From Sulfurovum sp. (GTDB lineage: Bacteria; Campylobacterota; Campylobacteria; Campylobacterales; Sulfurovaceae), in assembly GCA_002733355.1 (NCBI GenBank), contig NVVN01000005.1, positions 66,104-109,597 on the forward strand: a DNA stretch of 43,494 nucleotides, written 5' to 3'. Shown piece after piece: positions 3,113 to 22,015 of this stretch. The translations under genes were made by a program, and so were the position numbers. Position 1 is the first letter of the stretch. Each line of letters opens with the position of its first letter. Under the pieces are notes generated by a model that worked only from the letters and a program-made list of their open reading frames with translations, searched no databases and had not been told where the DNA came from.

Positions 3113-4802
3113 TGAAAGTATATTTTTACATTTTCCACTTCTTGTAGCACACTGGGGTGTATTATTTAAAGTATTAACCATTTTACTTATTATTGTACTG
3201 ATTTCTATTGCTATTTATGATAGATTTATTCAAAGAAAAGATCAACTTCTTATAAATTACCCACTTGTAGGGCGTATGCGCTACCTTTTTTATATGTTAC
3301 GAAATCCAATGCGTCAATATTTTGGAGATGAAATCTATTATGATTCTTTTGAAAAAGTTGAATGGGTAAATAAGGTTTCTGATGGCGAAAACCCTTATCT
3401 TTCTTTTGCGCTGGCCAAACCCTATGGTAATCAAAAAACACTTTTTAAACATGCTAATTTTGTTAAAGAGATACACGAAGTGCAAAATGACTTTTCTGTT
3501 TTATTTGGTAAAGAAAGACTCAAACCATATAAAACTAGAAGTATTATTGGTCGTTCTGCCATGAGTGATGGTTCTATCTCTCCAGAAGGTACACGGGCAT
3601 TTGCCAGAGGTGCATTTAATGGTCATTTTCCTATCAATACGGGGGAAGGTGGTTTAACATCGAATTTTCTTGCAACGATGAACTTATGTGACTGTGATGA
3701 AAGATATATTGAAACAAGAGAAGGGAGCTGGTTTGCCAAGATAATTTATAGGATTACACACTTTTTAACAAACAGAGAAATTTCACAGAGACTTTATAGA
3801 AGTATGGTAGTACGTCAAAAAGACAAAGGATCTTTCGTCTTTGATAGAGGTGAATTGGTCTATTTTCGCATAGATTGGAAAAAGTCACTAGATCTGTTTC
3901 CGACAGAAGTACCATTTGGAGTTCCTGATATAACATTTCAAATGGGTTCTGGACTTTATGGTGTAAGAGATGAACAAGGTAAGTTTGATGACGTGAGGTA
4001 TCAAAAGGTCATGAGCTTTTGTCAAATGACTGAAATAAAGTTGGCTCAAGGAGCAAAACAAACAGGAGGAAAACTACTTGCTACTAAAGTAAGCGATGAT
4101 ATTGCTTATTATAGGGGTATCCCTGCGCATCAGGATCTTATCAGTCCTAACCGTTTTCCTTATGCTACTGATACAGAAACTTTGTTTGATTTTATAGAAC
4201 ATTTACAAGTAATATCTGAAAAACCTGTAGGTTTTAAAATTGTTATATCCTCAGTTGAAAACTTTGAAATTTTTACTAAAGCACTCAAAAAAAGACTCGA
4301 TGCAGGTAAAAGTATTGCTGATTTTATCACGATTGATGGAGGTGATGGTGGTTCTGCAACTGCACCATTGGAAATGATGTCGAAGATAGGACTACCTATC
4401 AGAGAAGCGCTGCTCCTTGTTAATAAATCACTTGAAGAGTATAAATTAAAAGAACATATAAAAATCATAGCCAGTGAAAAAGTACTTACACCAGATGATG
4501 TGGTTGAACTACTTTGTCATGGTGCAGATTTTATAAATATTGCTAGAGGATTTATGATTTCCGCAGGATGTATACGTGCAAGGGAATGTTCCGGAGCAAA
4601 TGGGAGAGACTGCCCTGTAGGGCTTGCAACCATGAACGAATCCAAAAGAAGTAGATTTCTCGTAATTGAAAAGTCTAAACATATTGCTTTTTATCATCAT
4701 CAACTCCTTTTAGGTGTGCGTGGCTTACTTGCAGTTATGGGTAAAACTAATGTAAATGAACTTTCAATGGATGATCTTACACCACGATTTAAATACCGTT
4801 AA
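3105..4802 (+). CDS. Membrane-anchored FMN-binding glutamate synthase family protein (YerD-like, stand-alone)
   Basis: SAMSDGS, NTGEGG, EIKLAQGAK, DFITIDGGDGGSA, IARGFM and a C-terminal Cys cluster; N-terminal TM helix; ATG 3105 with SD AAGGA overlaps the doxX stop. Confidence 0.9.
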   Translation: MNNESIFLHFPLLVAHWGVLFKVLTILLIIVLISIAIYDRFIQRKDQLLINYPLVGRMRYLFYMLRNPMRQYFGDEIYYDSFEKVEWVNKVSDGENPYLSFALAKPYGNQKTLFKHANFVKEIHEVQNDFSVLFGKERLKPYKTRSIIGRSAMSDGSISPEGTRAFARGAFNGHFPINTGEGGLTSNFLATMNLCDCDERYIETREGSWFAKIIYRITHFLTNREISQRLYRSMVVRQKDKGSFVFDRGELVYFRIDWKKSLDLFPTEVPFGVPDITFQMGSGLYGVRDEQGKFDDVRYQKVMSFCQMTEIKLAQGAKQTGGKLLATKVSDDIAYYRGIPAHQDLISPNRFPYATDTETLFDFIEHLQVISEKPVGFKIVISSVENFEIFTKALKKRLDAGKSIADFITIDGGDGGSATAPLEMMSKIGLPIREALLLVNKSLEEYKLKEHIKIIASEKVLTPDDVVELLCHGADFINIARGFMISAGCIRARECSGANGRDCPVGLATMNESKRSRFLVIEKSKHIAFYHHQLLLGVRGLLAVMGKTNVNELSMDDLTPRFKYR

Positions 4803-4848: not shown

Positions 4849-5442
4849 ATGTTTAGAAAAAAACTATCTCTTATTATATTGCCTCTAGTTTCTACATTTT
4901 CACTGCAAGCCAATGACCCTTTTGAGAATAATATATTTAAAGAGATGATGCAGATGCAAAAGGAAATGGATCAAGTCTTTAATCGTATGCAACAGCACTC
5001 ATCCAAACTGTTAATTCCCCTAAGTGGCTCTAAGATAAACCAAACACAAGAGTTTGTTGATAAAGGCAAATATTATGAATTTATTACCAATATCCCTGAA
5101 AATAAAGAAAATAAAATCAATATAAATGCTAAAAATTCCATGATGTCTATCACAGCAAAAATCATAGAGAAACATGAAAATAAAACAGCTAACAGCTTTA
5201 GTTCTTCAAGTTCTATGCAAATGTATCAAAAAAGTATACCTTTACCTAAAGATGCTGATGAGGGGAGTTTGAAAGCTGAGTATAAAAATAAAAAACTTGT
5301 TATTTATCTAAATAAGAAGATAAATATACAGAAAACTGTTCAAAATATAGATAGTAATACTTCAGAATCAAATAGAACAAAAGAGAATAATAATTCAAAG
5401 AATAAAATAATGATTAATTCTGATTTTCCGTCTGTAAGTTAA
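4849..5442 (+). CDS. Hsp20/alpha-crystallin family protein with predicted Sec signal peptide
   Basis: N-terminus MFRKKLSLIILPLVSTFSLQA; alpha-crystallin core ...YQKSIPLPKDADEGSLKAEYKNKKLVIYLNK; SD AGGAG. Confidence 0.85.
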   Translation: MFRKKLSLIILPLVSTFSLQANDPFENNIFKEMMQMQKEMDQVFNRMQQHSSKLLIPLSGSKINQTQEFVDKGKYYEFITNIPENKENKININAKNSMMSITAKIIEKHENKTANSFSSSSSMQMYQKSIPLPKDADEGSLKAEYKNKKLVIYLNKKINIQKTVQNIDSNTSESNRTKENNNSKNKIMINSDFPSVS

Positions 5443-7571: not shown

Positions 7572-10500
7572 TTACTCTATTTCTTCTTCTTCAAAATCAC
7601 TCTTTTTTGAGAACTTTAGATAGAGTATAGGAAGAATGATAAGTGTGAGTAGTGTTGAACTTACAAGACCATTTATTACCACAATAGCCAGTGGCCGTTG
7701 TATCTCGGAACCGGGTCCTGTGGCAAAAAGAAGAGGCAAGAGTCCAAAAGCTGCGATACTAGCTGTCATAAGTACGGGTCTTAGTCTTTTAATTGCTCCC
7801 TCCATTACAGCCTCTTTAATGGAAATACCATTTTTTACAAGATAGTTGAAGTAGTTGACCAACACCACCCCATTAAGCACAGCTATACCAAGCAATGCGA
7901 TGAAGCCTACGGAAGCGGGAACTGACATATATTCACCACTAACATATAATCCTATAAACCCACCAATGAGAGCCAAGGGCACGTTAATAAGCACAATAAT
8001 AGCTTGTTTAAGTGAACCAAACGAAACAAATAATAAGATAAAGACCAACAAAAGTGCTAAAGGTACAATGATAGCAAGTCTATCTGCAGCACGTTGCTGA
8101 TTTTCAAATTCTCCACCAAATGTGAGGTAGTAACCTGCGGGAAGTTTTACCTCTTTTTCTATTTTGGCTTTAGCTTCTTCAACAAAACTAACAAGATCAC
8201 GTCCTTCTACATTGGTTTGTACAATAGTTTTTCTATATCCATGTTCATGTACTATCTGCACTGGTCCTGCACTGGATACAAATTTTACAAGCGTGCTTAA
8301 AGGGACAAATTTCCCATTTTTCAGAGGATAATAAAGTTTTTTTAACTTACTTATAGAGTTTTGTAGACTTGCATCTCCTTTGACCATAAGATTGATCCGT
8401 CTCATACCTTCTTGTATAATCCCAACCTGTACACCTGTAACCATGACTTTTAAAAAGTCATTTATTTCTTGTTGATCTATGTCATGGTATGCCATAGCTT
8501 TTTTATCAAAGCTCAGTTCTAAATACTCTACACCTTCGTTGGCTTTTTTATAGACATCTGAACTACCTGGTATAATTTCTAATATATCTTTGATTGTAAC
8601 GGCTATTTTTTCAAGTTCATCATTGTCACTACCAAAAATATCTATAGCCAAGTCACCCCGTACACCTGTGAGCATCTCAGACACTCTCATCTCTATAGGT
8701 TGAGTAAACCCATACTCTATTCCTACAAACTCATCAAATACTTTACGTATTTCATTAATCACAAACTCTTTCGAAGGCTCTCTCCACTGACTTTTATCTT
8801 TGAGTACCAAGAAAGTATCTGTGTCATTAAGTCCCATTGGGTCAAGTCCTAGTTCATCACTTCCTGTCCTGGCTATAATATCTTTAATTTCAGGTACAGA
8901 TGCTATGAGTTTTTGTTGTACTTTGAGGTTAAGTGCCAAACTTTCTTTAAGTGAAATAGATGGCAACATCTCTACTCCTATAATAATACTTCCCTCATCC
9001 ATAGTTGGCATAAATGACTTTCCTGTTTTAGATGCCATAAAGAGTGAAGCAGCAAAAAGTATGAGAACAACAGTAATAGTGGTTTTCCAGTGTTTTATAC
9101 AGGTAACTAAGATAGGTCTATACCTTTTAGTAAGTACCCTGATGAGCCATGACTCTTTGTCTGGTCTTTTACTCAGGATAAATGAACTAAGCACTGGTAT
9201 CAGTGTCAGTGCTAGTACTAACGATGAAAAAAGTGCAAAAATAATACTTAGTGCCACAGGTCTAAAAAGTTTTCCTTCAAGTCCTTCAAGTGTAAGTAAT
9301 GGCATAAAAACAATGATAATAATAAGAACACCCGTGATGATAGACGGTGCCATCTCAACTGTTGCCTCATATATGATGTGCAGTTTATTTACATTTTTGT
9401 GTTTTTCATTTCCCAATTCTGCTGTAATATGTTCCACTACCACTACAGCAGAATCGACAAGTATACCTATGGCAATAGCAAGTCCACCTAAGCTCATTAG
9501 GTTAGCTGTGAGTCCGAAATATTGCATAGCTATAAAACTCATTAGAAGTGCAAAAGGCAAGATAAGTGCTACTGAAAGTGCAGAAGCTAAATTGCCAAGC
9601 ATCACAAGTAATATTATCATGATGAGAACTATGGCTTCATAAAGTGCATTTTTAACAGTACTTGTAGCAAGGTTTACGAGGTCTGAACGATCATAAAATA
9701 TATCTATTTTAGTGCCTTCTGGGAGCATAGGCTCTAGTTTAGCTAGCTCTACTTTAACCTGTGCTAGTACTTTTTCAGTATTACTCCCTTTAAGTCCAAG
9801 AACCAATCCTTGCACAGCTTCACCTTTACCATTTTTACTTACAAAGCCTGCACGTGTCAAATACCCAAATTTAACAGTAGCTATGTCTCTAATAGTGATG
9901 ATTTTATCACCACGTTTTGTTACTGGAAGCGCTTTTATTTCATCTAATGAATTGAGTTTACCCACTGACCGTACTAAGATGCTTTCTACACCTTGAGAGA
10001 CACGTCCTGCACCATCATTTTGATTGTTGTTTTCTAAACTAGTAAAGATATCCTCTAAGCTGACACCCATCGCACGCATCTTATTAAGATCAGGCATTAC
10101 TTCATAGGTTTTGACTTTCCCCCCAAGTGCATTCACTTCTGCAACACCGGATACAGAACGAATTTTAGGTGAAATGATCCAATCAAGCAATGAACGTTTC
10201 TCTTCCAAAGAAAGAGTATCTGATTCTATAGTAAACATCAAAATATCACTAAGCGGTGTAGAAATAGGGGCAAGTCCACCCTCCATATTTTTTGGAAGTT
10301 CTCCTCTAATATCAGTAAGACGTTCAGTGACTTGCTGTCTTGCCCAGTAAATATCCGTACCATCTTCAAAGTCAATGGTAATATCACAAAGCCCATACTT
10401 CGCTATACTCCGCATCATTTTTTCATGAGGGATACCTAACATTTTCATCTCTATAGGTGTAACAATACGAGATTCTATCTCCGCAGGTGTCATTCCACTT

Positions 10501-10655
10501 GACTTGATGATTATCTTAACTTGAGTAGGTGAGATATCTGGAAAAGCATCCACAGGTAATTCTTGATAGGCTTTTATACCAAACCCAAGTATAACCAAAG
10601 CAAGTAATGATAGAAATAACCTTTGTGCAAGGGCAAATCCTATAATTTTATTCAT
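7572..10655 (-). CDS. CusA/CzcA family heavy-metal efflux RND permease (system 1)
   Basis: PVDAFPDI, AIAIGILVDSAVVVVE, VLNGVVL and RLRPVLMTA motifs; ~1027 aa; ATG 10655 with SD AGGTG overlaps the adaptor stop. Confidence 0.95.
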   Translation of the reverse strand: MNKIIGFALAQRLFLSLLALVILGFGIKAYQELPVDAFPDISPTQVKIIIKSSGMTPAEIESRIVTPIEMKMLGIPHEKMMRSIAKYGLCDITIDFEDGTDIYWARQQVTERLTDIRGELPKNMEGGLAPISTPLSDILMFTIESDTLSLEEKRSLLDWIISPKIRSVSGVAEVNALGGKVKTYEVMPDLNKMRAMGVSLEDIFTSLENNNQNDGAGRVSQGVESILVRSVGKLNSLDEIKALPVTKRGDKIITIRDIATVKFGYLTRAGFVSKNGKGEAVQGLVLGLKGSNTEKVLAQVKVELAKLEPMLPEGTKIDIFYDRSDLVNLATSTVKNALYEAIVLIMIILLVMLGNLASALSVALILPFALLMSFIAMQYFGLTANLMSLGGLAIAIGILVDSAVVVVEHITAELGNEKHKNVNKLHIIYEATVEMAPSIITGVLIIIIVFMPLLTLEGLEGKLFRPVALSIIFALFSSLVLALTLIPVLSSFILSKRPDKESWLIRVLTKRYRPILVTCIKHWKTTITVVLILFAASLFMASKTGKSFMPTMDEGSIIIGVEMLPSISLKESLALNLKVQQKLIASVPEIKDIIARTGSDELGLDPMGLNDTDTFLVLKDKSQWREPSKEFVINEIRKVFDEFVGIEYGFTQPIEMRVSEMLTGVRGDLAIDIFGSDNDELEKIAVTIKDILEIIPGSSDVYKKANEGVEYLELSFDKKAMAYHDIDQQEINDFLKVMVTGVQVGIIQEGMRRINLMVKGDASLQNSISKLKKLYYPLKNGKFVPLSTLVKFVSSAGPVQIVHEHGYRKTIVQTNVEGRDLVSFVEEAKAKIEKEVKLPAGYYLTFGGEFENQQRAADRLAIIVPLALLLVFILLFVSFGSLKQAIIVLINVPLALIGGFIGLYVSGEYMSVPASVGFIALLGIAVLNGVVLVNYFNYLVKNGISIKEAVMEGAIKRLRPVLMTASIAAFGLLPLLFATGPGSEIQRPLAIVVINGLVSSTLLTLIILPILYLKFSKKSDFEEEEIE

Positions 10656-11721
10656 TACTTTCACCTAATATATTTTTTAAAATAGCCACAGAGGAACTTG
10701 CAATAGTCCCACTTATATGAGGGTTTATTTTGATGTAATAGGCTTCATTATCTTCTGCAAGAATTTCTATGGGAACATCAAGATAGCCTTTGCTATTTTT
10801 AACAAAAATAATTTGTCGCTCCCCGTCTTTTATAACAGAATTTTTACTCACTTTCATACTCTTTGAAGTTATAGAAATGTGTGCATTCTCCCGTAATCCT
10901 GCAACGATATTTACTTCTTTTGGTATAATGAATCGGACTTGTCTGGTTTGGTTTTCTCGGTTAATTACTGGAGAAATTTGTAAGATATTACTCTCAAAAG
11001 TTTTGCCATACATTTTGATGGTTACAGCTTGCCCCTCTTTAAGATTTTTTGTACGCTTAGCTTCTATGTTAGTTTCCAGCCAGAGCTTACCTTTTTTTTG
11101 TATGACAAAGAGTGCACCACCTACAGTTGTACTTTTCCCTGGTGATGCATGAAGAATAATAATTCTGCCTTCTACATCACTTTTTACATCAAGAGTAGGG
11201 CTAAGTATAAGTTGATTAAAAAGTGTATCTATCATGGTATCACTTGCTCCATAACTCTTAAGTAGTGCCTTCGAGGCGACTACTCTTATCTTGTCTGTTC
11301 TAAGTTCTGCATTGGCAGCAATACACTCCTTTTTAGGAATAATTTCTTCTTTACAAAGTATGTTTTTACGTTCAGTAAGATGAGAATGATGTTTAAACTC
11401 TATCGCTTCTGAAATGGCTTTTTGCTGTATAGCTATCCACTCTGTTCCTGTAACGTTTGCAAGTATATCACCCTTGTGTACCATTTGATACTGGGCAACA
11501 TTAAGGGTTTTTACATTGGCTTCAAAAGGAAGTGAAATAGTATGAAGTAGTGTAGGTGGGGTCACTACTTCTGCTACAAAATCACCCAAAGGAAGTTGCT
11601 CAAAGAGCTTAGGCTTTTCTAATGTAATTTGCCAATTTTTTTCTTGTTCTTCACTCAATATAATCTCTCCAGAATGAGAAAAGGTTAAGAGTATACTGAG
11701 CATCATAATATGTTTTTTCAT
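10648..11721 (-). CDS. RND periplasmic adaptor (CzcB/CusB-like), system 1
   Basis: Signal peptide, barrel-sandwich hybrid motifs (V.KGD.LA; VKSDVEGRI), located between TolC and RND pump; start ATG 11721 with SD AGGA. Confidence 0.9.
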   Translation of the reverse strand: MKKHIMMLSILLTFSHSGEIILSEEQEKNWQITLEKPKLFEQLPLGDFVAEVVTPPTLLHTISLPFEANVKTLNVAQYQMVHKGDILANVTGTEWIAIQQKAISEAIEFKHHSHLTERKNILCKEEIIPKKECIAANAELRTDKIRVVASKALLKSYGASDTMIDTLFNQLILSPTLDVKSDVEGRIIILHASPGKSTTVGGALFVIQKKGKLWLETNIEAKRTKNLKEGQAVTIKMYGKTFESNILQISPVINRENQTRQVRFIIPKEVNIVAGLRENAHISITSKSMKVSKNSVIKDGERQIIFVKNSKGYLDVPIEILAEDNEAYYIKINPHISGTIASSSVAILKNILGESNE

Positions 11722-11725
11722 TGTT

Positions 11726-12919
11726 TTAGTCCTTTTTTTCACTCAAACTGTAGAGTCTAAAGAGTGTATTGTAATATGCTTTTTTATGTGTATGAAGTTC
11801 TTGGCTTAGTGTATAAAGTTGTTGACGGTTCAGTAAGTACTCAATAACAGAGGTTTCACCTAAACTATAGCTTTTTTTGATAAGTGGTAATAACTTTTTT
11901 TTGTAATTCCTGTAGTTTTTTGAAAGACTTTGTATTATCAAGGCTTGACTGTAAAGTTGCGCTTTAAATTCTTTCAGTAAAGATGTTTTTTCTAGCATTG
12001 CTTGTTCAAATCCATATTCAATAGCAGATGCCTTATGCATAGCTGCAGCACGTGCATGTTCATTACGTTCAGAGGTGAAATTAAGTGGTAAAGATATACC
12101 TATAGTGTATCTGTCTACATCCAACTCTTTTCCGTACTGACCATTAATAGTAACCGACTCTAATGCATTGTCGTAACGTATTAAGCTCTTTTTAGCACTC
12201 TGAAGACGCTTTTCTTTGGCTTCTTTTGAAAGTGAAAAAGAATGATCAAGTTTTATTTTACTACGGATAGGATAGACATCTTTACAAGAAAGATTTGTAT
12301 TATTTCCGTATCCTATACGGCTAAGCATCAAAATCTTCTGTTTAGAAATGTCTTGCATCATTTTCATCTTTTTTACTTGAGCAAGAAGTCTGTTTTTTTC
12401 ATTTTCAAGTTGCATAAGTTCTACTTTTGAAACCTCTTGGTATTTATAAGCTTTTTCTTTCTTTTTGTAGAGTATAAGCAAGTCATTGTAGCTTTGTTTT
12501 ATATTTCTATAGTTTTGTACATCCAGACAGTGTGTATGATAGAGATTTTTTAATCCATTTCTAAAATCAATTAAAACTTTTTCACTCTCTATACGTGAAG
12601 CTTCTGTTTGAAGATTGGCTATAGTACGTTCTTGGCTTTGAATATTTCCAAGTTTTATATTCTTTGAAATGCCTATGGCATATTCATATCCATCTGTTCC
12701 AAATTTTGGTCTGGCTCTGCTACCTTCAAGATAAAGTCCAAATGGGTTATCGGATGTATCAGATAGGCTTTGAGCTCTCATCGCTAAAGCTTGTTGATCA
12801 AATGATTTTGACATTACATTATGCTCGTCAGCAGAAAGCAGTAGTTTATGAAGCGTAAGTGTTGAAGCATAGGTAAAATTAAGACTTAAACCTATTAGTA
12901 TCCAAAATAGGATTTTCAT
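11726..12919 (-). CDS. TolC/CzcC family outer-membrane efflux protein, system 1
   Basis: Signal peptide, coiled-coil repeats, IGISLPL and SYSLGETSVIEYL OMF motifs. Confidence 0.9.
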   Translation of the reverse strand: MKILFWILIGLSLNFTYASTLTLHKLLLSADEHNVMSKSFDQQALAMRAQSLSDTSDNPFGLYLEGSRARPKFGTDGYEYAIGISKNIKLGNIQSQERTIANLQTEASRIESEKVLIDFRNGLKNLYHTHCLDVQNYRNIKQSYNDLLILYKKKEKAYKYQEVSKVELMQLENEKNRLLAQVKKMKMMQDISKQKILMLSRIGYGNNTNLSCKDVYPIRSKIKLDHSFSLSKEAKEKRLQSAKKSLIRYDNALESVTINGQYGKELDVDRYTIGISLPLNFTSERNEHARAAAMHKASAIEYGFEQAMLEKTSLLKEFKAQLYSQALIIQSLSKNYRNYKKKLLPLIKKSYSLGETSVIEYLLNRQQLYTLSQELHTHKKAYYNTLFRLYSLSEKKD

Positions 12920-12922
12920 ATG

Positions 12923-12973
12923 TAACCTTTATTATAAAATTTTAAGTGTATTAGGGTGTAAAAATAAAGGTTA
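12923..12973 (-). promoter_or_regulatory. 11-bp RNA stem pairing the leader-ORF stop region with the tolC SD
   Basis: mRNA UAACCUUUAUU (12973-12963) is the exact reverse complement of AAUAAAGGUUA (12933-12923), which contains the tolC SD AAAGG. Confidence 0.75.
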
Positions 12974-13273
12974 AGCTATAGGGGGTTTGATACTTGTTTT
13001 TTGAAAAGGAGGGGTATAAAAAGTCTTTTGATGAAGTACTTTACTTTTGAGAGTAGGAGTTGAGAGAGATAAATAAGTCTTTTCTATAATTGCCATAAAA
13101 TGAAATATGTGGTGATAGTCACAAATATCGCTAGATTGTGAAAATGAAATTTGTTCTTGTACATAAGTATGTATGGAGGTACTAGTATCCATTTCTTCTG
13201 CAAGTACAGTATCATGTACTATATGAAAAAAGAGTGTAAACAATAGTAAAAACTGTAAGAGTTTCTTTTTCAA
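12971..13273 (-). CDS. CzcI/DUF2946-like small leader protein, copy 1 (100 aa)
   Basis: TTG start with SD AAAGG; hydrophobic N-terminus, DICDYHHIFHFMAI, C-terminal YTPPFQKTSIKPPIA; clear paralog of 20749-21054. Confidence 0.8.
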   Translation of the reverse strand: MKKKLLQFLLLFTLFFHIVHDTVLAEEMDTSTSIHTYVQEQISFSQSSDICDYHHIFHFMAIIEKTYLSLSTPTLKSKVLHQKTFYTPPFQKTSIKPPIA

Positions 13274-13508
13274 CACCGTACCTTTATACATTTTGTGTAG
13301 TGTATCTAAAAATAGTTAACAACTAAAAGAAATCTTTTATCTAGTAGAGTTAAATATTTATTTCTTCTTCTACTCACATATACCAACAAAATAGAATCAT
13401 TTTGGAGTTATGCTAAAATAGGATTAGTTTAGTTTTATAGTACGTGTAAAAATTTTTAACCAATATCTACAATCCAATGCTAAACATCATAGATAAGGTT
13501 TTAATAAA

Positions 13509-14405
13509 ATGGAAAATTATATAGAGTTAATTCAAAATCTCGTAAATAAAATTGAGGAAGATGTAGCATTTGACGTGAGTATAGCTTTGCTTGCAAAAGA
13601 GTTCCATCTTTCTCCTTGGCATTTTCAGCGTATGTTTAAAAGTATTGTGGGTGATTCTTTAGGTGCTTATATACGAGGTCGTAGGCTTACAAAGGCATCC
13701 AAGTTATTGCTAAATAGCCAAGATACAATTATCCAAATTGCTTTTGATGTAGGGTTTAGTTCACATGAAGCATTTACCCGATCATTTAAAGCCTATTTCT
13801 CATTTTCACCAAAAGAATTTCGGAAAGTAAAACCTAAAGTTATTTTGAATGAAAAGCCTTTATTAACACAAGATTTATTAGAGCATATTAGCCATGGCAT
13901 GAACCAAGAACCTACTATTATTACACTACCAGAACGTATACTAGTTGGGGTAAAAACACATATACCTTCGCCATTTGTTACAACGCAACATACTTGTGAT
14001 TTTGTATATAAGTCGTGGATGACATTATTTGAAAAACAAGTACATTTAAAACATAAAGTTGAGAAAAATTATTTTGGATTAACCATAAGCCCTTCAGGTA
14101 ATTTTACTGAAGAAAAATTAGACTATATCGCAGGTATACAGGTGGTCAATAAAAGTGAAATTCCTGAAGATATGGTACAGTATATTTTACCAAAAACGCA
14201 AGTAGCTATCTTTAGTATCAAAAGTGATTTAGATAGTGACTTGGTTAAGAAAACAATAGACTATATTTATGGGTATTGGTTACTAAATAGTGAATATACT
14301 CGAGGTATTGGTGATGACTACGAGTACTTTGAAGATGTAGTTAGTTTTATGGAACCCACCTTCAAATCATTTTATGTGTTACCTGTAGTAAAAAAAACTA
14401 GTTAG
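13509..14405 (+). CDS. AraC family (Rob-like) transcriptional regulator with C-terminal GyrI-like effector domain
   Basis: SPWHFQRMFK...GAYIRGRRLTKA...IAFDVGFSSHEAFTRSFK dual HTH; GyrI-like domain ending YIYGYWL...RG.GDDYEYF. Confidence 0.9.
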   Translation: MENYIELIQNLVNKIEEDVAFDVSIALLAKEFHLSPWHFQRMFKSIVGDSLGAYIRGRRLTKASKLLLNSQDTIIQIAFDVGFSSHEAFTRSFKAYFSFSPKEFRKVKPKVILNEKPLLTQDLLEHISHGMNQEPTIITLPERILVGVKTHIPSPFVTTQHTCDFVYKSWMTLFEKQVHLKHKVEKNYFGLTISPSGNFTEEKLDYIAGIQVVNKSEIPEDMVQYILPKTQVAIFSIKSDLDSDLVKKTIDYIYGYWLLNSEYTRGIGDDYEYFEDVVSFMEPTFKSFYVLPVVKKTS

Positions 14406-15102
14406 CATTTACCTTTTCCCATGCATCTTGATTAATACCTTTAAATAAAAACCAAAATACTAATGATAGTTCAGCCGGAATGGTTAGTAAAACAATAGTA
14501 TTTAATATATCTGCATAGTGTGGTAGCAAGAATAATCCCATACTATTTATAAAATATCCTGCACTTGCAAAGAAAAAAAGTGCAGCAAATATTTTTGGTA
14601 CAAAGTTTGAAGTACAGATGAGTCGTGACATAATGAATAGATGCAATGCGAAGAATAGTCCCCAAATGAGTGATCCATACCCATAGGCTTGTAGAAATAT
14701 ATAAGCTAAGGCTTCTTGTTGCTGGAGTGTGAAGTGAGTTAAGTAACTAGCTCCACTTAGTAATTCAAGTACTATAAGTTTGTTTAAAATATTTATACCG
14801 ATAAGTGCCGTCATCGCAAAACGTGCGGCAGCTGCTATTTGAGCCTGTGTTTTGTTTACAGGTTTAAATAGTTTATATAAAAGTACAGTAACGATAATCT
14901 CACTTAACAAGAGCAAGCCATCAGCTACTATCCCTAACCTAAAGGTAAAGATATCGCTTAGAATGTTGGTTGTTGTTGCATGTATATCATTTGAAACGAC
15001 TAAAGCTTCAAAGCCCACAAAAAATGCAAATCCTCCACATAATGCTATAAAAAGGTACAGTAGAGCAATGCTTTTGACAGTTGTTTGTATATTTGATTTC
15101 AT
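14398..15102 (-). CDS. DUF4386-like polytopic membrane protein
   Basis: About six TM helices; FRLGIVAD, LYKLFKPVNK, FFALHL, PAELSLVFWFLFKG pattern recalled for DUF4386. Confidence 0.7.
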   Translation of the reverse strand: MKSNIQTTVKSIALLYLFIALCGGFAFFVGFEALVVSNDIHATTTNILSDIFTFRLGIVADGLLLLSEIIVTVLLYKLFKPVNKTQAQIAAAARFAMTALIGINILNKLIVLELLSGASYLTHFTLQQQEALAYIFLQAYGYGSLIWGLFFALHLFIMSRLICTSNFVPKIFAALFFFASAGYFINSMGLFLLPHYADILNTIVLLTIPAELSLVFWFLFKGINQDAWEKVNAN

Positions 15103-15125
15103 ATATAATCCTTATATTTTATGTT

Positions 15126-15169
15126 AGTTTAGCAGGTATAAGCATTGTATATTTGATAGTTTGTGCTAT
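15126..15169 (-). promoter_or_regulatory. Mar/Sox/Rob box with class II promoter geometry upstream of the DUF4386 gene
   Basis: ATAGCACAAACTATCAAAT (15169-15151) matches AYNGCACNNWNNRYYAAAY at all specified positions; 19 nt downstream is TAAACT (15131-15126), preceded by TGC. Confidence 0.7.
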
Positions 15170-15257
15170 GTAGATAATGCCCTGTACTGTGCAATTATCA
15201 TATAATCTTGTATGGTAGCTACATAAGTGTAATGTAACTATCATTGAAATATTGAAT

Positions 15258-18200
15258 TTACTCCTTCTTGCTAAAAAACAAAACATACAGGCCAGGTAAA
15301 ACCAAGAGCGTGAGTATGGTTGAGGAGATGATACCACCAGTTACTACTACTGAAAGTGGGTATTGAATCTCAGAACCAACGCCACTTGCAAAGAGTAGAG
15401 GCAAAATACCAAAAAGCGTGGTAAAAGCTGTCATCAGTACAGGTCTAAGGCGTAGTAGCGTAGCATCTTTTACGAGAACTACGGTTTTCACTGTAGGGAA
15501 TTTTTTTCTCAACTCATCTATAAATGAAACCAAAACTATGCCATTGAGTATGGCAATGGCAAAGATGGCTATGAATCCAACAATCGCTGAGACTGAGAGG
15601 TAGATATCTGCTACCAAAAGTGCGACTATCCCCCCCATAAGTCCTAAAGGAACACCCAGTAAGATGAGGAATGCCTTTTTAAATGAGTTAAATGCTGTGT
15701 AGAGTAGTAGCAAGATAAGTAACAGTGTAATAGGAATAATCATAACAAGTGTTTCTGTAGCCTCTTGCATATTTTTAAAATCACCAGCCCACGTGAAGTA
15801 GTAACCATCGGGTATTTTTACATTTTTACGTATTTTTTCATCTGCTTCTTCTACAAAAGTAGCAATGTCACGTCCTTCAACTTCCATAGAGAGTACCATA
15901 TAACGACTCAAGTTTGCACGCTTAATGAATGCAGGACCTTGTATAGTACTTATATCACATACTTCATCTAGTGAGACCACTTTTCCTGAGCTTGAGCGTA
16001 GAATGAGAGACTTTAGTGTATTTATATCTTGTTTTGCATTTGCTAATTTAGCAACAATCCCAAAACGCTTGACGCCTTCTATCTTTTGGGTGACTGCTTC
16101 CTCACCTATGCCATAACGAATGACTTGCATTATATCTTCAACCGTCAAACCATAACGAGAGAGTGCTAAATAGTTTGGTTTGATGTTGATTTGTGCTTGT
16201 CCAAGTTGTGTTTCTACCTCTGCGTGAGAAAGTCCTTCAATGCCTTGTACTGTAGCAGAAATACCTGTGGCTATCTCAGACATAACTTTCTGATCTTCAC
16301 CATATATTTTAACGGCAAGTTCAGCTGATACACCTTCTAGCAACTCTTCTATACGCATGGCTATAGGTTGCGTAGAAATGAACTGTAGGTAGTTAAACTT
16401 CTCTTTTAGTTTTGCTGTCATCTCTTTATCTAAACGAGGAATTTCAGTAAATTCTGGGTTTAGGGTAAGGAGAACTTCCATATAATTAGCTTGAGCTGTC
16501 TCACCTTTTTCACTACGTCCTATCATGGAGAGTACAGAAAGTACTTCATCTGGGTAAGTTTTGAGTAAAAAGTTTTCTATGGCTTGGGCATTCTCTACAT
16601 TTTGTGTAAGTGCCGTCCCCGGAATGGCAATAACTCGATACATAATCGTTTCTTCATTAAGTTTAGGCATAAACTCTCTACCTTGTTGACTAAGTAATCC
16701 TGCTAAAAGAAAAAATATTAAAAAAGTCACAGCCACAAGTTTTTTAGCATGTTTCAGTGAGAAAATAAGCATAGGTGTATAAAAAGTCTTAATCGCAGTC
16801 ATGAGTGGGCTGGTCATTGTAGCCGGTTTAAGCAACATAAACGAAAGCACAGGCACAAGTAAAAGAGCTACAGCCAAAGAACCAAGCATTACAAAGACAA
16901 TGTCTAGTGCCATAGGTGTGTAGAGTTTTCCAGCAAGTCCTTCAAGACTAAGAAGTGGTATGAATACTGTAGCAATGATAAGTAGGGCAAAGAGTACAGG
17001 TTTTGCTACTTCTGCTGTAGCATCCGAGATAACTTCAGAACGTGATGCTTCAGGATTTTCCTGCAGTAATCTAAATGAGTTTTCTACCACAACGATGGTA
17101 CCATCGACTATCATTCCTATGGCTATGGCGAGTCCGGAAAGAGACATAAGGTTAGCCGATATACCATACTCTTGCATAAGTAAAAATGCGATAAGCAAAG
17201 ATACGGGTAACGAAAGTATCACGATAAATGCTGAACGTAACTCAAAGAGAAACAAAAAGAGGACAATTGCTACAAGTATAGACCCTGTAGTTAAGGCAGA
17301 GGTCATGGTACTCACTGCTTTATGCGTGATTTCTGTTCGGTCATAAATAATGTCTAAACTTACCCCTTTAGGGAGTGAAGCATTCACTAGAGGCATTTTA
17401 GCTTTAATAAGCTCGACAACCTTTGCAGCATTCGTACCTGAACGCTGGAGTACCATACCAAATACTCGTTCCTTACCATCGACTGAGACTGCACCAAAAC
17501 GTGGTGCTTTCCCCTCTTGTACTGTTGCTACGTCGTTAATCGTTACGGCTTTGGCATTTTTTGTTCTTATTACGGTATTACGTATATCATCCATATCTTT
17601 ATAGAGTCCTGCTCCACGTATAAGATACTGTTCACGGTTAAACTCTAAGTATTGGCCACCTACAGACTGATTGGATCTTTCTAAGGCTAGAATAATTTCA
17701 TTGTAAGTTACATCAACATTTTGTAGACGTTTAGAGTCTATGAGTACTTCATATTGCTTCTCATAGCCTCCCCAAGAGATGACCTCTTCTACACCATCTA
17801 CAGACTTGAGTAGCGGGGTAACTGTATACTCATGCATTTGGCGAAGCGCACTTGGAGTATATTTTTTATTTTCATCTTTGAGTGCATACCAAAGTACTTG
17901 CCCAAGACCTGTCGTGTTAGGACCCATGACAGGTACGCCCCATCCTTTAGGGATATCAACTGTATTCAGTCTTTCAGTCACTAACTGACGAAGCAGGTAT
18001 GTATCATACTCATCTTCAAAAAATATAGAGACATAGGATAATCCAAAGATAGAGTTTGAGAGTATCATTTTAACACCGGGTAGTCCAGACATCGCAGCTT
18101 CTATAGGGTAGGTGATAAGTTTTTCGATGTCTTCTGCAGAGTTACCTGAGCTCTCTGTATAGATAACCACTTGTTTAGGCGTGATATCTGGAAAAGCATC

Positions 18201-18305
18201 TACAGGTATATCTTTATAAGCTTTATAACCAAATCCGGAGATAGCTATAAATAAAGCAAGCACGAGAAATTTATACTGAATGAGTATACTAAAAAAACGA
18301 TTCAT
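15258..18305 (-). CDS. CusA/CzcA family heavy-metal efflux RND permease (system 2)
   Basis: PVDAFPDI, AIAIGMIVDGTIVVVEN, ILNGIVL and RLRPVLMTA; 1015 aa. Confidence 0.95.
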   Translation of the reverse strand: MNRFFSILIQYKFLVLALFIAISGFGYKAYKDIPVDAFPDITPKQVVIYTESSGNSAEDIEKLITYPIEAAMSGLPGVKMILSNSIFGLSYVSIFFEDEYDTYLLRQLVTERLNTVDIPKGWGVPVMGPNTTGLGQVLWYALKDENKKYTPSALRQMHEYTVTPLLKSVDGVEEVISWGGYEKQYEVLIDSKRLQNVDVTYNEIILALERSNQSVGGQYLEFNREQYLIRGAGLYKDMDDIRNTVIRTKNAKAVTINDVATVQEGKAPRFGAVSVDGKERVFGMVLQRSGTNAAKVVELIKAKMPLVNASLPKGVSLDIIYDRTEITHKAVSTMTSALTTGSILVAIVLFLFLFELRSAFIVILSLPVSLLIAFLLMQEYGISANLMSLSGLAIAIGMIVDGTIVVVENSFRLLQENPEASRSEVISDATAEVAKPVLFALLIIATVFIPLLSLEGLAGKLYTPMALDIVFVMLGSLAVALLLVPVLSFMLLKPATMTSPLMTAIKTFYTPMLIFSLKHAKKLVAVTFLIFFLLAGLLSQQGREFMPKLNEETIMYRVIAIPGTALTQNVENAQAIENFLLKTYPDEVLSVLSMIGRSEKGETAQANYMEVLLTLNPEFTEIPRLDKEMTAKLKEKFNYLQFISTQPIAMRIEELLEGVSAELAVKIYGEDQKVMSEIATGISATVQGIEGLSHAEVETQLGQAQINIKPNYLALSRYGLTVEDIMQVIRYGIGEEAVTQKIEGVKRFGIVAKLANAKQDINTLKSLILRSSSGKVVSLDEVCDISTIQGPAFIKRANLSRYMVLSMEVEGRDIATFVEEADEKIRKNVKIPDGYYFTWAGDFKNMQEATETLVMIIPITLLLILLLLYTAFNSFKKAFLILLGVPLGLMGGIVALLVADIYLSVSAIVGFIAIFAIAILNGIVLVSFIDELRKKFPTVKTVVLVKDATLLRLRPVLMTAFTTLFGILPLLFASGVGSEIQYPLSVVVTGGIISSTILTLLVLPGLYVLFFSKKE

Positions 18306-18314
18306 ATTATACTC

Positions 18315-19514
18315 CTAGTGACCATGCTCGCCAAGAGAAGACTTGAGCAGCATTGACTTCACAAAGTAAACTCCATCACTCACATACTCTTCATCTACTT
18401 TAAGACCTTTAATTGCTACATAGTCACCCACATAGGCAATAATTTCAATCACTTGTGCTTCGTAAGGTGCTTCCTCTTCTTCATGTTCATCGTGTTTACC
18501 TTCACCGTGAGTATCTTCATCTTTATCATTTCCTTTCTCGGCTTTGTGCGCATCATGGTCATGCTCATCATGTTCTGACTTTTCTTTTTCGTGATCATGA
18601 TCAGACTTTTCTTCATGGTGTCCAGCCTCTTCATGTTCTTTTTCTGTAAAAACAACCCATTCTCCCTTGTAAAGTGTGATGGCAGATTTTTTAACCATAA
18701 CCACATTTTTTGTAGGAGCAAGAGAAATATCTATCTCTGTAAATGCACCTAAAAGAAGATTTGATGGACTATTTTCTATTTGAAAAAGTACCTTAGCACG
18801 CTGTGTCTCAGGGTCAATGTTTGGTAAAAGTTGCATAAAAGAGGCATCATAACTTTTACCTAAAAGATTGATATAACCTTTTGTATCTTTAGATACATGC
18901 AATGCATGCTTGGTTGAGAGATACGCTGTAGCATAGTAAGTATTTTGATTTACCAATGTAACTAAAGGTGTCTGGGCACCTACATTTGTATGCAATGGTG
19001 CAAGGATGTTACCTACAGTTCCATCTGCATGAGCATAGAGTATAAATTGATCTGTTGCGGCTGTAAGTGATTTTGGCTTTAAGCCTAAAGAGTTCAACTG
19101 TGAAGCCAAAGTATTTAGTTGACTACGTATATTTTCTAAAGCAATAATGGCATTACTCACATCATTTTGTGAAGCTATACCTTTTTTATGTAAAGTCTTT
19201 GCTGTATTTTTCTGTGTTTTGGCAGCTTTTAGTTGTTTAACCAGTGCTAAATATTCTGCAGTCATTTTTGAAAGTTCTATGGACTCTATGAGTACAACTT
19301 TATCATCTTTAGAAACATGTTGTCCAGGTTTTACATAATAGGCTTCCAAATGTCCAGAGAGACGTGAAACAATGGTTTGTTTTTGGTCTGAGAGTTGTGT
19401 AATTTGAGCGTTTGTTTTGATAATCTTACCTAATGGTTTAAGTTCTGCATGTTCCATCTTTATAGCAGAAGAGAAGCCCAAAAGGGGTAAAAGTAAAAGT
19501 AAATATTTAGTCAT
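18315..19514 (-). CDS. RND periplasmic adaptor with a His/acid-rich insert, system 2
   Basis: Signal peptide, SRLSGHLEAYYVKPGQHV, IDPETQRAKV; ~60-aa His/Glu/Asp/Lys insert near the C-terminus; ends GEHGH. Confidence 0.92.
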   Translation of the reverse strand: MTKYLLLLLPLLGFSSAIKMEHAELKPLGKIIKTNAQITQLSDQKQTIVSRLSGHLEAYYVKPGQHVSKDDKVVLIESIELSKMTAEYLALVKQLKAAKTQKNTAKTLHKKGIASQNDVSNAIIALENIRSQLNTLASQLNSLGLKPKSLTAATDQFILYAHADGTVGNILAPLHTNVGAQTPLVTLVNQNTYYATAYLSTKHALHVSKDTKGYINLLGKSYDASFMQLLPNIDPETQRAKVLFQIENSPSNLLLGAFTEIDISLAPTKNVVMVKKSAITLYKGEWVVFTEKEHEEAGHHEEKSDHDHEKEKSEHDEHDHDAHKAEKGNDKDEDTHGEGKHDEHEEEEAPYEAQVIEIIAYVGDYVAIKGLKVDEEYVSDGVYFVKSMLLKSSLGEHGH

Positions 19515-20682
19515 TGTAGTCTCCTTGAATGAAACGTAATTCTATTTTTTGATTGTTAATCATTTTTTGTGTTTGTAGCAATGTTTTTCGTGTTTGTATG
19601 AGTTTATTTTTAGTATTCATCATCACAAATATCGAACCCTGTGCTATTCTGTAGCCCTCTTGAAGTAAATCATTAAGTAATTGCTGCTCTTTTTTAAGAG
19701 TTTTGAGGCTGTAGTATTGATTGTTTAGCTCTTTAAGAGATACTTTTATCATCTGTTTTTGTGTATAAAGATCTATAGACAATTGTTCATTATCAAGTAA
19801 GAGCTGTTGTTTTTGTAATTTTGCCAACATCTTCTCTTCTGATTTGTCATTAAAAATAGGAAGAGGGATTGAAACACCCAGTCTGATAATAGACTGATCT
19901 GGCTCATTCTCTATACTGCTATACACACTATAACTGTTGATACTGCTCTCATTCATACGAATTTGACTATCCAAAATTTTTGCTTTGGCTGCAAGTATCT
20001 GTTGTTTTGAATTACTTTTACTACTACTTTTAACCATAGAAGAGACAGGATAGATAAAACTTTTTACTAAACTAACTTTTTTTGTCAATCCTGCAATGGC
20101 TAAAAGTTGATAATATAAACTGTTCATTTGTTGTTTTGTTGTAAACATTTGTGACTTAAGTGAGATGGTGTTCGTTTTCGCCTGCAAATAAGATATCTTG
20201 TTTTCAGAGCCACTTTCATAACGTTCTTCTACTATACTTGTAACTTTGGTAGAGAGTTTATATTCCTCTTTTAAAAGTAAAAGTAACTTACTTTGATACA
20301 CATATTCAGTATAAAGTACTTCAAGTGTTCGTATATATCCTGCTTTTCCATCTTTTACGTAAGCTTGCTGAAGTAATGTATTTGCATTTGCCTGATCTTC
20401 CAATCCACCATAGTAGTTAAATGTACGTATATTTTGAGTAATACTGGCAGCATACTGAAAACTTGAATTTAAAGTATCTGGGTTAAAACGCGATGCTTCA
20501 AGCCCTAGCATGGGGTTTTTTGAGCGTAGAAGTATTTTGTTTTTTTCTTGTATTGTTTGTATCGAAAGTGCTTGACTTTGAAGTACTTTCGCATTTTTTT
20601 GTGTATATTTTTTGAACTGTTCATAACTCATTCCAAAAGCAGTTATAGATAAGCCCAAAAAAAATATAAATATTTTTTTCAT
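19507..20682 (-). CDS. TolC/CzcC family outer-membrane efflux protein, system 2
   Basis: Signal peptide, ERYESGSENKISYLQAK and LGVSIPLPIF OMF motifs. Confidence 0.9.
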   Translation of the reverse strand: MKKIFIFFLGLSITAFGMSYEQFKKYTQKNAKVLQSQALSIQTIQEKNKILLRSKNPMLGLEASRFNPDTLNSSFQYAASITQNIRTFNYYGGLEDQANANTLLQQAYVKDGKAGYIRTLEVLYTEYVYQSKLLLLLKEEYKLSTKVTSIVEERYESGSENKISYLQAKTNTISLKSQMFTTKQQMNSLYYQLLAIAGLTKKVSLVKSFIYPVSSMVKSSSKSNSKQQILAAKAKILDSQIRMNESSINSYSVYSSIENEPDQSIIRLGVSIPLPIFNDKSEEKMLAKLQKQQLLLDNEQLSIDLYTQKQMIKVSLKELNNQYYSLKTLKKEQQLLNDLLQEGYRIAQGSIFVMMNTKNKLIQTRKTLLQTQKMINNQKIELRFIQGDYND

Positions 20683-20748
20683 ACGGATTCCTGTAATTTA
20701 ATATTGTAGATTTGTGCTCTATAGAGAGCTAGGGTGTGGTGACGCGTT

Positions 20749-21054
20749 TTAAGCTATAGGGGGTTTAATGTTTGTCTCTTGAAATGGAGGGGTATAACAT
20801 ACTACTTTATGTATAAGTTTTGTTTTACTCATTAATCTATCTGCGCTAAGTAAAGGTGTATCTAAGATTGCCATAAAATGGAAGAAATGATGTATATCAC
20901 ATAAATCACCACACTCAGCTGTATTACTTTGTTCTAATACATATTCATGTACAGATTCATGATGGCACTCATCTCCTACAGCGATGATAGAAGCATGAGC
21001 AATATTAAAAAAAAGTGCACATAACAATATAAAGTATATCAAACCTTTTTTCAA
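20749..21054 (-). CDS. CzcI/DUF2946-like small leader protein, copy 2 (101 aa)
   Basis: TTG start, SD AAAGG; hydrophobic N-terminus, CHHESVH, CGDLCDIHHFFHFMAI, C-terminal YTPPFQETNIKPPIA. Confidence 0.8.
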   Translation of the reverse strand: MKKGLIYFILLCALFFNIAHASIIAVGDECHHESVHEYVLEQSNTAECGDLCDIHHFFHFMAILDTPLLSADRLMSKTKLIHKVVCYTPPFQETNIKPPIA

Positions 21055-21109: not shown

Positions 21110-22015
21110 TTATCGTCTAAAAGTTACTTTATTCAAATCACATACATAACTATCTATAGCATGTTCCATCTGTATAGTAATATGCTCTATTTTGTAGTTA
21201 TCATGTAAAAAACCTTGAACTTCATCTAAAAATTCATTGTCTATCTTTTTATTGTTACTGACTAGATGGACACTAAAAGCAATTTCTGTAGTACTAAGTG
21301 CCCACACATGTAAAGCATGTATTTCTTTAATATTTGGAAGATTTAAAAGATACTCTTTAATTTCTTCCATATCTATATCCTTAGGTACTGCATCCATTGC
21401 TAAATTCACAGAATCACGGAAAAGTCCCCAAGTACCTAGAAGAATGACTAAGACAATAAGTAAACTAAGTACAGGATCTAACCAAAGCCAACCTGTATAC
21501 ATAATGACGATACCCGCAATAACAACACCCAATGATACACCGGCATCTGCTGCCATATGTAAGTATGCTCCTCTAATATTCAAGTCATCTTTTTGACCAT
21601 CCATAAATAGCAAGGCTGTAATAGTGTTAATAACTACTCCTATACCTGCCACAATGATGACAATTAATCCATCAACAGGTTGTGGGTCTGCAAAACGTCC
21701 TATTGCCTCCCAAGCTATAGCACCAAGTGCAATAAGAAGTAAGATAGAAGAGGTTAGTGAGGCTAAAATAGTTACTTTTTTAAGCCCATAAGTGCGTTTT
21801 AATGATGGATCCTTCTTTGCTAAGTAAAAAGCACCCCAAGCCAAGATAAGACTTACTACATCACTTAGATTATGCCCAGCATCTGCAATAAGTGCCAACG
21901 AATCAGCCATTACCCCATAAGCAGCCTCTATAATGACGAAGATAATATTAAGTGTTATTCCTATTGAGAAAGCTTTATTATAATTTTTTACTTCATGACT
22001 ATGGTCGTGTCCCAT
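21110..22015 (-). CDS. czcD: Cation diffusion facilitator (CzcD/ZitB-like Zn/Co/Cd exporter)
   Basis: N-terminal MGHDHSH, SLALIADAGHNLSD (HxxxD), NIRGAYLHMAAD, LHVWALS, HITIQME. Confidence 0.92.
   Translation of the reverse strand: MGHDHSHEVKNYNKAFSIGITLNIIFVIIEAAYGVMADSLALIADAGHNLSDVVSLILAWGAFYLAKKDPSLKRTYGLKKVTILASLTSSILLLIALGAIAWEAIGRFADPQPVDGLIVIIVAGIGVVINTITALLFMDGQKDDLNIRGAYLHMAADAGVSLGVVIAGIVIMYTGWLWLDPVLSLLIVLVILLGTWGLFRDSVNLAMDAVPKDIDMEEIKEYLLNLPNIKEIHALHVWALSTTEIAFSVHLVSNNKKIDNEFLDEVQGFLHDNYKIEHITIQMEHAIDSYVCDLNKVTFRR

Follow-up and report, generated by a model that had tools for sequence, protein, structure and literature searches.

What does the AraC-type regulator gene at positions 13509 to 14405 of a Sulfurovum sp. 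contig segment control, and from which promoter? The segment (contig NVVN01000005.1, positions 66,104 to 109,597 of the forward strand; 43,494 nucleotides, analysed as a whole and called the window below) carries this gene beside a gene for a DUF4386 family protein, between two operons of the czc type. A first inspection of the letters alone, termed here the sequence-only reading, had described an AraC-GyrI regulator converging on a DUF4386 gene with an 8-bp overlap, and the open reading frames (ORFs) and Pfam domains are as claimed. It had also proposed that the regulator drives the DUF4386 gene. Comparative evidence supports this proposal: a box of the mar/sox/rob type (marbox) is found in 36 of 36 orthologous loci, its orientation and its distance to the −10 element are conserved, and the window box is the single strong site in its genome. 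From these sequence comparisons, we consider it likely that the regulator activates DUF4386 from a class II marbox promoter, as a one-component sensor-output module. The elements of the proposed system are as follows.

13509 to 14405, plus strand: regulator gene, 298 amino acids (ORF; Pfam HTH_18 and GyrI-like), with an N-terminal MarA-type double helix-turn-helix (HTH) and a C-terminal GyrI-like effector domain.
14398 to 15102, minus strand: DUF4386 gene, 234 amino acids (ORF; Pfam PF14329), the putative regulated target.
14398 to 14405: convergent stop-codon overlap of 8 bp, ACTAGTTAG (ORF coordinates).
15151 to 15169, minus strand: predicted operator, 19-nt marbox-type ATAGCACAAACTATCAAAT (exact consensus match; core kept beside orthologous regulators).
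15166 to 15153, minus strand: predicted family core GCACAAACTATCAA within the operator, forward relative to DUF4386.
15126 to 15134, minus strand: −10 element TGcTAAACT, with the hexamer TAAACT at 15131-15126 and a TG extension at 15134-15133 (sequence and conserved offset).
15109 to 15113, minus strand: Shine-Dalgarno sequence AAGGA, 8 nt before the DUF4386 ATG at 15102-15100 (sequence).

Predicted operator and promoter in the window and at orthologous loci

Read on the DUF4386 strand, the upstream region consists of ATAGCACAAACTATCAAAT, a 19-nt spacer, TGcTAAACT, AAGGA and the ATG (15102), in this order. The box (15169-15151, minus strand) fits the consensus AYnGCACnnWnnRYYAAAY at all specified positions, confirming the 19/19 match of the sequence-only reading, and is the only exact match that the window contains, against an expectation of 0.02 (2 in 100 shuffles). 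When one mismatch is allowed, two matches are found against 1.07 expected, which is chance level. The one-mismatch marbox ACTGCATCCATTGCTAAAT at 21387-21405 (plus strand) is thus no more frequent than chance predicts, and the family weight matrix gives it less than 8 bits. The exact match alone is therefore suggestive, not decisive, and evidence from outside the window is needed.

The spacer occupies 15150-15132, between the box and the hexamer TAAACT (15131-15126), and includes TGc at 15134-15132. Transcription of DUF4386 would start near 15119, about 7 nt past the −10 element, which would place the centre of the box at about −41. In a class II promoter, a forward marbox overlaps the −35 element and is centred between −36 and −55 (PMC12052159). 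The Escherichia coli micF promoter, as read from the genome record, is arranged as ACAGCACTGAATGTCAAAA, 19 nt, TAGAAT, 7 nt and +1. This +1 is the 5′ end of micF RNA; the micF sequence used to place it matched the genome at 100%. The titles of the Protein Data Bank (PDB) entries name micF as the class II promoter present in the structures of the Rob and SoxS activation complexes. The micF promoter shares with the window promoter both the forward orientation and the 19-nt box-to-−10 spacing, a distance within the 18-19 nt of class II promoters, in agreement with the class II geometry that had been assigned to the window.

Within the 1.94-Mb genome, the window box is the only strong site, scoring 29.8 bits (maximum 30.8) with the weight matrix, compared with 18.9 bits for the next. 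The adjacent regulator is likewise the only AraC-GyrI paralogue of this genome with a MarA-type W-QR helix; the other paralogues carry FHMHK in helix 3 in place of WHFQR. An exact copy of the 14-nt core GCACAAACTATCAA lies at C19:7212-7225, inside the 5′ coding part of a 592-residue ORF, and probably arose by chance; an estimated 0.03 copies are expected per genome, the flanks give 15.3 bits, and the copy has no promoter context. A second half-site, ATTGCAC at 15195-15189, had also been proposed. It is present, but we rejected it because AYNGCAC occurs 39 times in the window and the corresponding offset holds GCAC in none of 28 other loci.

With a single genome scanned for each species, 36 orthologous regulator loci were obtained, at 43-55% identity and in several phyla; the family occurs in Pseudomonadota, Bdellovibrionota, Spirochaetota, Bacteroidota and Campylobacterota. 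The core GCAC-NNN-Y-TATCAA stands beside the regulator in 29 of the 36 loci (regular expression), and the remaining seven carry one-mismatch variants at the same place (weight matrix). The sequence-only reading had made its case depend on conservation of the box in homologous cassettes, and the box is indeed beside the regulator in every orthologous locus, as well as in five further loci of close relatives (L063, L105-L108). At the orthologous loci, it always lies on the coding strand of the adjacent gene. The family core can be written GCAC-AAA-Y-TATCAA; its AAA was not fixed by the search and is kept, position by position, in 28, 27 and 31 of 31 sites. Likewise not fixed by the search, the three specified bases of a TAnnnT hexamer recur in 29 (T), 30 (A) and 28 (T) of 31 sites. 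This hexamer lies exactly 21 nt past the core, which equals 19 nt past the 19-nt box, in 25 of 28 non-redundant promoters, and at any other offset in at most two of the 28. No −35-like (TTGACA-like) hexamer was found at any locus examined. As regards the 19 nt to an extended −10 element in the sequence-only reading, the spacing is borne out and kept in these 25 promoters, while the TG extension is particular to the window and not kept at other loci.

The family core was derived by applying the generic marbox consensus to 12 divergent DUF4386-regulator intergenic regions; the same motif was top-ranked in all 12, on the DUF4386 coding strand. The control set comprised 42 loci (339 kb), 41 of them from distant AraC relatives and one orthologous (L066). 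It contained one match of at least 19 bits outside the family (L079), and the sole other match was in the orthologous L066. Seven DUF4386 loci without the regulator (L002, L023-25, L124-126) carry no box. Conservation of the box upstream of DUF4386 homologues, which had been suggested as a check, is hence seen at the regulator-linked loci and not at the regulator-less ones. Since the box is present at regulator loci and absent at regulator-less DUF4386 loci, it is the regulator that it accompanies and not DUF4386.

At nearly all other loci, the target gene is transcribed divergently from the regulator or lies downstream of it, and the box is 12-100 nt from the regulator start codon in most of them (12-40 nt in many divergent loci). 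At those loci, the box may also autoregulate the regulator; this coupling is absent in the window.

The regulator protein and comparable systems

The regulator is, by its double HTH sequence, a member of the AraC/XylS family and of the MarA/SoxS/Rob subfamily. Pfam assigns HTH_18 to residues 28-106 (E 9.7e-24; HTH_AraC, 2.2e-12) and the GyrI-like domain, an SHS2 duplication, to residues 134-274 (E 1.1e-13; Cass2, 1.9e-10), and the domains extend over residues ~8-107 and ~134-295, respectively. Among solved structures, phmmer ranks MarA as the closest (3.9e-17), followed by STM3175, SoxS, Rob and RamA. The AlphaFold2 model (predicted local distance difference test, pLDDT, 88) places seven helices within residues 2-107, and a Foldseek search with the full-length model returns STM3175 (7r3w) and Rob (1d5y) as the best matches, along with SbmC (1jyh) and SAV2435.

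Helix 3 reads SPWHFQRMFK, compared with SKWHLQRMFK in MarA, and in the alignment to 1bl0, W37, Q40 and R41 of the regulator correspond to W42, Q45 and R46 of MarA. The MarA residues that contact DNA, reportedly established by Rhee et al. in 1998, are these three residues of helix 3, on GCAC, together with residues of helix 6. In helix 6, the arginine alone is kept (R91, for MarA R96), and MarA Q91/Q92/T93 are replaced by H86/E87/A88. The altered residues, invariant as SHE(A/S)F(T/S)R, fit the family-specific 3′ half-site TATCAA. At 47-59% identity, the family members in the protein collection all keep SPWHFQR and SHE(A/S)F(T/S)RSFK; an alignment of 30 members shows W37, Q40 and R41 of helix 3 and R91 of helix 6 to be invariant. 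In the GyrI-like domain of the same 30 members, C163, W170, E201, Y254, W257 and R265, residues of a pocket type, are invariant. C163 sits where the long helix of this domain starts and may contact the ligand or be redox-reactive.

The resemblance to Rob noted in the sequence-only reading holds for the architecture and for the W, Q and R of helix 3, but it does not extend to orthology. The NCBIfam model RobA_TF (NF012228), whose alignment spans both domains (residues 6-275), scores 95.3 bits against a cut-off of 380, and PRK15121 scores 85.7 against 426. Because the RobA score is far under the equivalog cut-off, we regard the regulator as a protein of Rob architecture that is not a Rob orthologue. 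Rob (1d5y, 7vwy) has the same order of MarA-type double HTH and GyrI-like domain, and its asymmetric box of ~19 bp likewise begins with AYnGCAC, stands forward and lies 19 nt from the −10 element. In contrast, the regulator is just 22% identical to Rob over the full length, its helix 6 is altered, and the 3′ half-box of its family is invariably TATCAA, not RYYAAA. Rob shares a global regulon with MarA and SoxS, whereas the regulator has one site per genome and one adjacent target. Unlike Rob, its family occurs outside Enterobacteria.

MarA, SoxS and RamA (1bl0, 7w5w, 7bef) resemble the regulator in the DNA-binding domain (~36% identity, E 4e-17), the marbox logic and the class II architecture. 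They have no ligand domain and are regulated through their own synthesis, whereas the regulator has its own sensor domain and appears dedicated and local. STM3175 of Salmonella (7r3w), an AraC-GyrI albicidin-resistance protein according to its entry title, is the top full-length structural match and shares the two-domain architecture, although the phmmer similarity is confined to the HTH domain. We know of no operator, class II promoter or DUF4386 link for STM3175. The MerR-GyrI proteins BmrR, BrlR and EcmrR were found as structural matches to the GyrI-like domain, which in them binds lipophilic or aromatic ligands; they, too, are one-component sensors that switch on an adjacent defence gene. 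They differ in their MerR DNA-binding domain and in acting by distortion of the spacer of a 19-bp promoter. CmrA/PA2048 of Pseudomonas aeruginosa, an electrophile-responsive AraC protein (PMC11129675), is a possible analogue.

Output genes, putative mechanism and rival explanations

The DUF4386 protein matches PF14329 with 141.8 bits (cut-off 27.6) over profile positions 4-210 of 210, and 74 homologues were found, the closest at 59% identity. Its AlphaFold2 model (pLDDT 96.5) consists of helices only, and a polytopic membrane protein is predicted. A fold search with this model against the PDB gave no relative (best E 0.3, template modelling score below 0.3), and a literature search gave no paper naming DUF4386 or PF14329. 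A second literature search returned nothing relevant on AraC-GyrI regulators paired with quinone oxidoreductases; a preprint on GloR, a LysR regulator, was set aside as irrelevant.

A profile hidden Markov model places a DUF4386 gene directly beside the regulator in many orthologous loci. The gene that the box faces encodes DUF4386 in about 20 loci and a dehydrogenase of the MDR superfamily in about 15; for the latter, the closest NCBIfam model is a PIG3-type NAD(P)H quinone oxidoreductase, with scores under its cut-off. Two Arcobacteraceae-type loci have an NmrA/NAD_binding_10 protein as the target, and one locus has an alpha/beta hydrolase with a dehydrogenase after it. In a Kangiella metagenome-assembled genome, a second box faces a gene for a beta-lactamase-fold protein. 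On the maximum-likelihood tree of the regulators, counting well-supported branches only, the DUF4386 label requires at least seven changes and the dehydrogenase label at least six. Similar partners recur in operons without the regulator: a dehydrogenase overlapping DUF4386; DUF4386 followed by a beta-lactamase-fold gene and NAD_binding_10; and NmrA followed by DUF4386. Moreover, the window DUF4386 is 58-59% identical to regulator-less homologues and at most 37% to regulator-linked ones, and this closer kinship with the former fits target swapping. The target context is consistent, as guilt by association and no more, with a link to reductases of quinone-like or electrophilic compounds.

Two loci carry two boxes. 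In the Kangiella sp. genome (L032), boxes at 3854-3867 and 5002-5015 flank the regulator; one faces a divergent DUF4386 gene, and the other, downstream, faces the beta-lactamase-fold gene. In an Arcobacter sp. contig (L063), which encodes a regulator relative with 59% identity over its first 87 residues (cut by the contig), boxes of 30.2 and 26.0 bits lie at 3560-3579 and 1134-1153. Their neighbours are a gene of 691 codons, whose product resembles a methyl-accepting chemotaxis protein at its N-terminus, and a gene for a 303-residue protein. As both boxes of L063 face other genes, the family can have two targets, also outside the set of enzymes and DUF4386.

We postulate the following mechanism. 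The regulator would bind the single asymmetric operator ATAGCACAAACTATCAAAT as a monomeric double-HTH protein, with helix 3 (W37/Q40/R41) reading GCAC and helix 6 reading the family-specific TATCAA. The box would take the place of the −35 element, 19 nt from the −10 element and centred near −41, where a TTGACA-like hexamer is lacking. Once ligand-bound, the regulator would act as a class II activator in the manner of Rob and SoxS at micF: by recruiting RNA polymerase or stabilising it, it would switch on DUF4386. We infer four of these steps, namely that the regulator binds the box, that it activates and does not repress, that transcription starts near 15119, and that a ligand is required. In other bacteria, the outputs of this sensor and promoter are either DUF4386 or NAD(P)H quinone-oxidoreductase-like or NmrA-like enzymes, which points to a lipophilic redox-active or electrophilic small molecule as the most likely signal. 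The weakest step is the last one, namely that DUF4386 would form the membrane-level part of the response to such a molecule. The role in detoxification or export suggested earlier for DUF4386 is sharpened by the quinone-oxidoreductase-like alternative targets and serves as a lead only. This mechanism is a conventional one. The module adds a local representative to the MarA/SoxS/Rob kind, distinguished by its family-specific 3′ half-site and by having just one adjacent output.

A wider proposal, which we regard as tentative and rather doubtful, is that the regulator family, its invariant box and the fixed-distance −10 element constitute a portable sensor-promoter unit that repeatedly exchanges its output gene. 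DUF4386 would then be an equivalent or partner of the exchanged enzymes, a membrane-embedded defence against a lipophilic quinone-like or electrophilic compound, with Cys163 and Glu201 as the chemical sensor. The outputs of such a unit may include DUF4386, NAD(P)H quinone-oxidoreductase-like dehydrogenases, NmrA-like reductases and hydrolases.

The surroundings of the gene pair, which bear on the alternatives, comprise the following features.

7572 to 12971, minus strand (12971-7572): czc operon 1 (leader/OEP/MFP/RND), divergent from the regulator (ORFs and domains).
13292 to 13508: intergenic region between the regulator and the divergent leader of czc operon 1 (weight-matrix scan, no box).
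15189 to 15195, minus strand: ATTGCAC, the proposed second half-site, judged to be chance and outside the system (below 8 bits; no conservation).
15258 to 21054, minus strand, as DUF4386: czc RND operon upstream of DUF4386, operon 2 below (ORFs).
12971 to 13291 and 20749 to 21054, minus strand: short ORFs of 106 and 101 amino acids at the heads of the two czc-type operons (ORFs).

The region 13292-13508 must contain the regulator's own promoter, and it holds no weight-matrix site of 8 bits or more. A scan of 12900-15400 gave no terminator-like site, neither between the regulator and DUF4386 genes nor elsewhere. Similarly, no intrinsic terminator was found in 15103-15257, the 155-nt gap between the czc RND gene (stop at 15258) and DUF4386; its sole hairpin, 15244-15212, has a z-score of −1.4 and no U tract.

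Several points weigh against activation of DUF4386 by the regulator as set out above. The two genes are convergent and overlapping here, unlike the arrangement in nearly all other loci, and transcription induced at DUF4386 would consequently run antisense through the regulator gene. As no terminator separates DUF4386 from the czc RND gene, read-through from czc could contribute to its expression. Hexamers resembling a −10 element are common in DNA of 32% G+C, and the promoter call would be weak from the window alone. The contacts of helix 6 differ from those of MarA (H86/E87/A88 for Q91/Q92/T93), and the reading of the 3′ half-site is for this reason assumed from the co-conservation of protein and box only. 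Finally, the proposed ligand class would follow from guilt by association among sequence neighbours.

The sign of regulation is the first matter on which another account can be given. If the regulator repressed the DUF4386 promoter or acted dually, it would occlude the −35 region until the ligand releases it. The box does overlap the core promoter region, its closeness to the regulator start codon in many divergent loci (12-40 nt) probably reflects autoregulation there, and some sites of AraC-family proteins and of MarA are negative, MarA repressing pbpG (PMC12052159). A repressor site would, however, need neither a fixed orientation nor base-pair-exact spacing, and the forward orientation, the strict 19-nt distance and the lack of a −35-like hexamer are the signature of activator-dependent class II promoters like micF; we hold repression to be unlikely. 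It is more improbable still that DUF4386 is expressed mainly by read-through from the czc RND operon, with the box promoter as a relic carried in with the cassette. This would accord with the shared orientation, the 155-nt gap free of an intrinsic terminator and a gene order that is rearranged relative to all other loci. Yet a relic should decay, and the box (29.8 of 30.8 bits), spacer length, −10 element and Shine-Dalgarno sequence are all intact, as is the regulator, which is 95% identical in an independent metagenome contig of the same arrangement.

The divergent czc operon 1 (12971-7572) might also be considered the true target of the regulator, with metal efflux as the output, given that the regulated gene is the divergent neighbour in most orthologous loci and that this neighbour is here the czc leader/OEP/MFP/RND operon. 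But neither 13292-13508 nor any other part of the window holds a further box of 8 bits or more, and the operon 1 orthologues of congeners have no such regulator beside them, which renders a czc target very improbable. We give hardly any credence to a coincidental 19/19 match in AT-rich DNA between unrelated neighbours, even though one-mismatch matches occur at chance level in the window and an identical 14-nt core lies inside a coding region elsewhere in the genome (C19:7212). Only 0.02 exact matches are expected, the core recurs beside the orthologous regulator, and in a fixed promoter geometry, at 36 of 36 loci, and the box is essentially absent from the control loci. Nor are the orthologous loci recent copies of one mobile element, since their flanks and targets differ.

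The conserved association with a ligand-sensing type of regulator provides a first regulatory context for DUF4386, and finding the inducer would reveal the stress that is answered. The interchange with quinone-oxidoreductase-like enzymes narrows the candidates. In addition, a separate and widely transferred family obeys the marbox recognition code and keeps the class II spacing of E. coli micF to the base pair. Since the sequence fully defines the operator, the promoter and the regulator, the module should be transferable into E. coli as a reporter for ligand screening.

Origin of the cassette and the flanking czc operons

Among 37 genomes of the genus, two contain DUF4386. Congeners lack an orthologue of the regulator; their best matches reach 25-30% identity over the full length. 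A search of the plasmid collection gave no homologue at E < 1e-40. The independent metagenome contig, with 97% DNA identity, has the same arrangement of leader, regulator and DUF4386 3′ end, and its regulator is 95% identical at the protein level.

In congeners, orthologues of czc operon 2 (RND 86-89%) are followed by unrelated DNA. For operon 1, the orthologue is separated from operon 2 by 160 kb in G016 and by 1.2 Mb in G021, and it can also be absent; the orthologues of the two operons are never adjacent to each other and never beside the cassette. A clean insertion between the two czc operons was therefore set aside, as no empty site can be reconstructed from the congeners. With the operons far apart or single in congeners, the simple insertion splitting them that the sequence-only reading had envisaged as a possibility is not supported in that form; the cassette itself is accessory, DUF4386 being present in so few genomes. 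Taken together, these genome comparisons support an accessory cassette at a synteny break.

The 106- and 101-residue leader ORFs are homologous to each other and are kept, at 29-55% identity, at the heads of the orthologous operons in congeners. Because of this conservation, we regard them as real genes rather than spurious ORFs.

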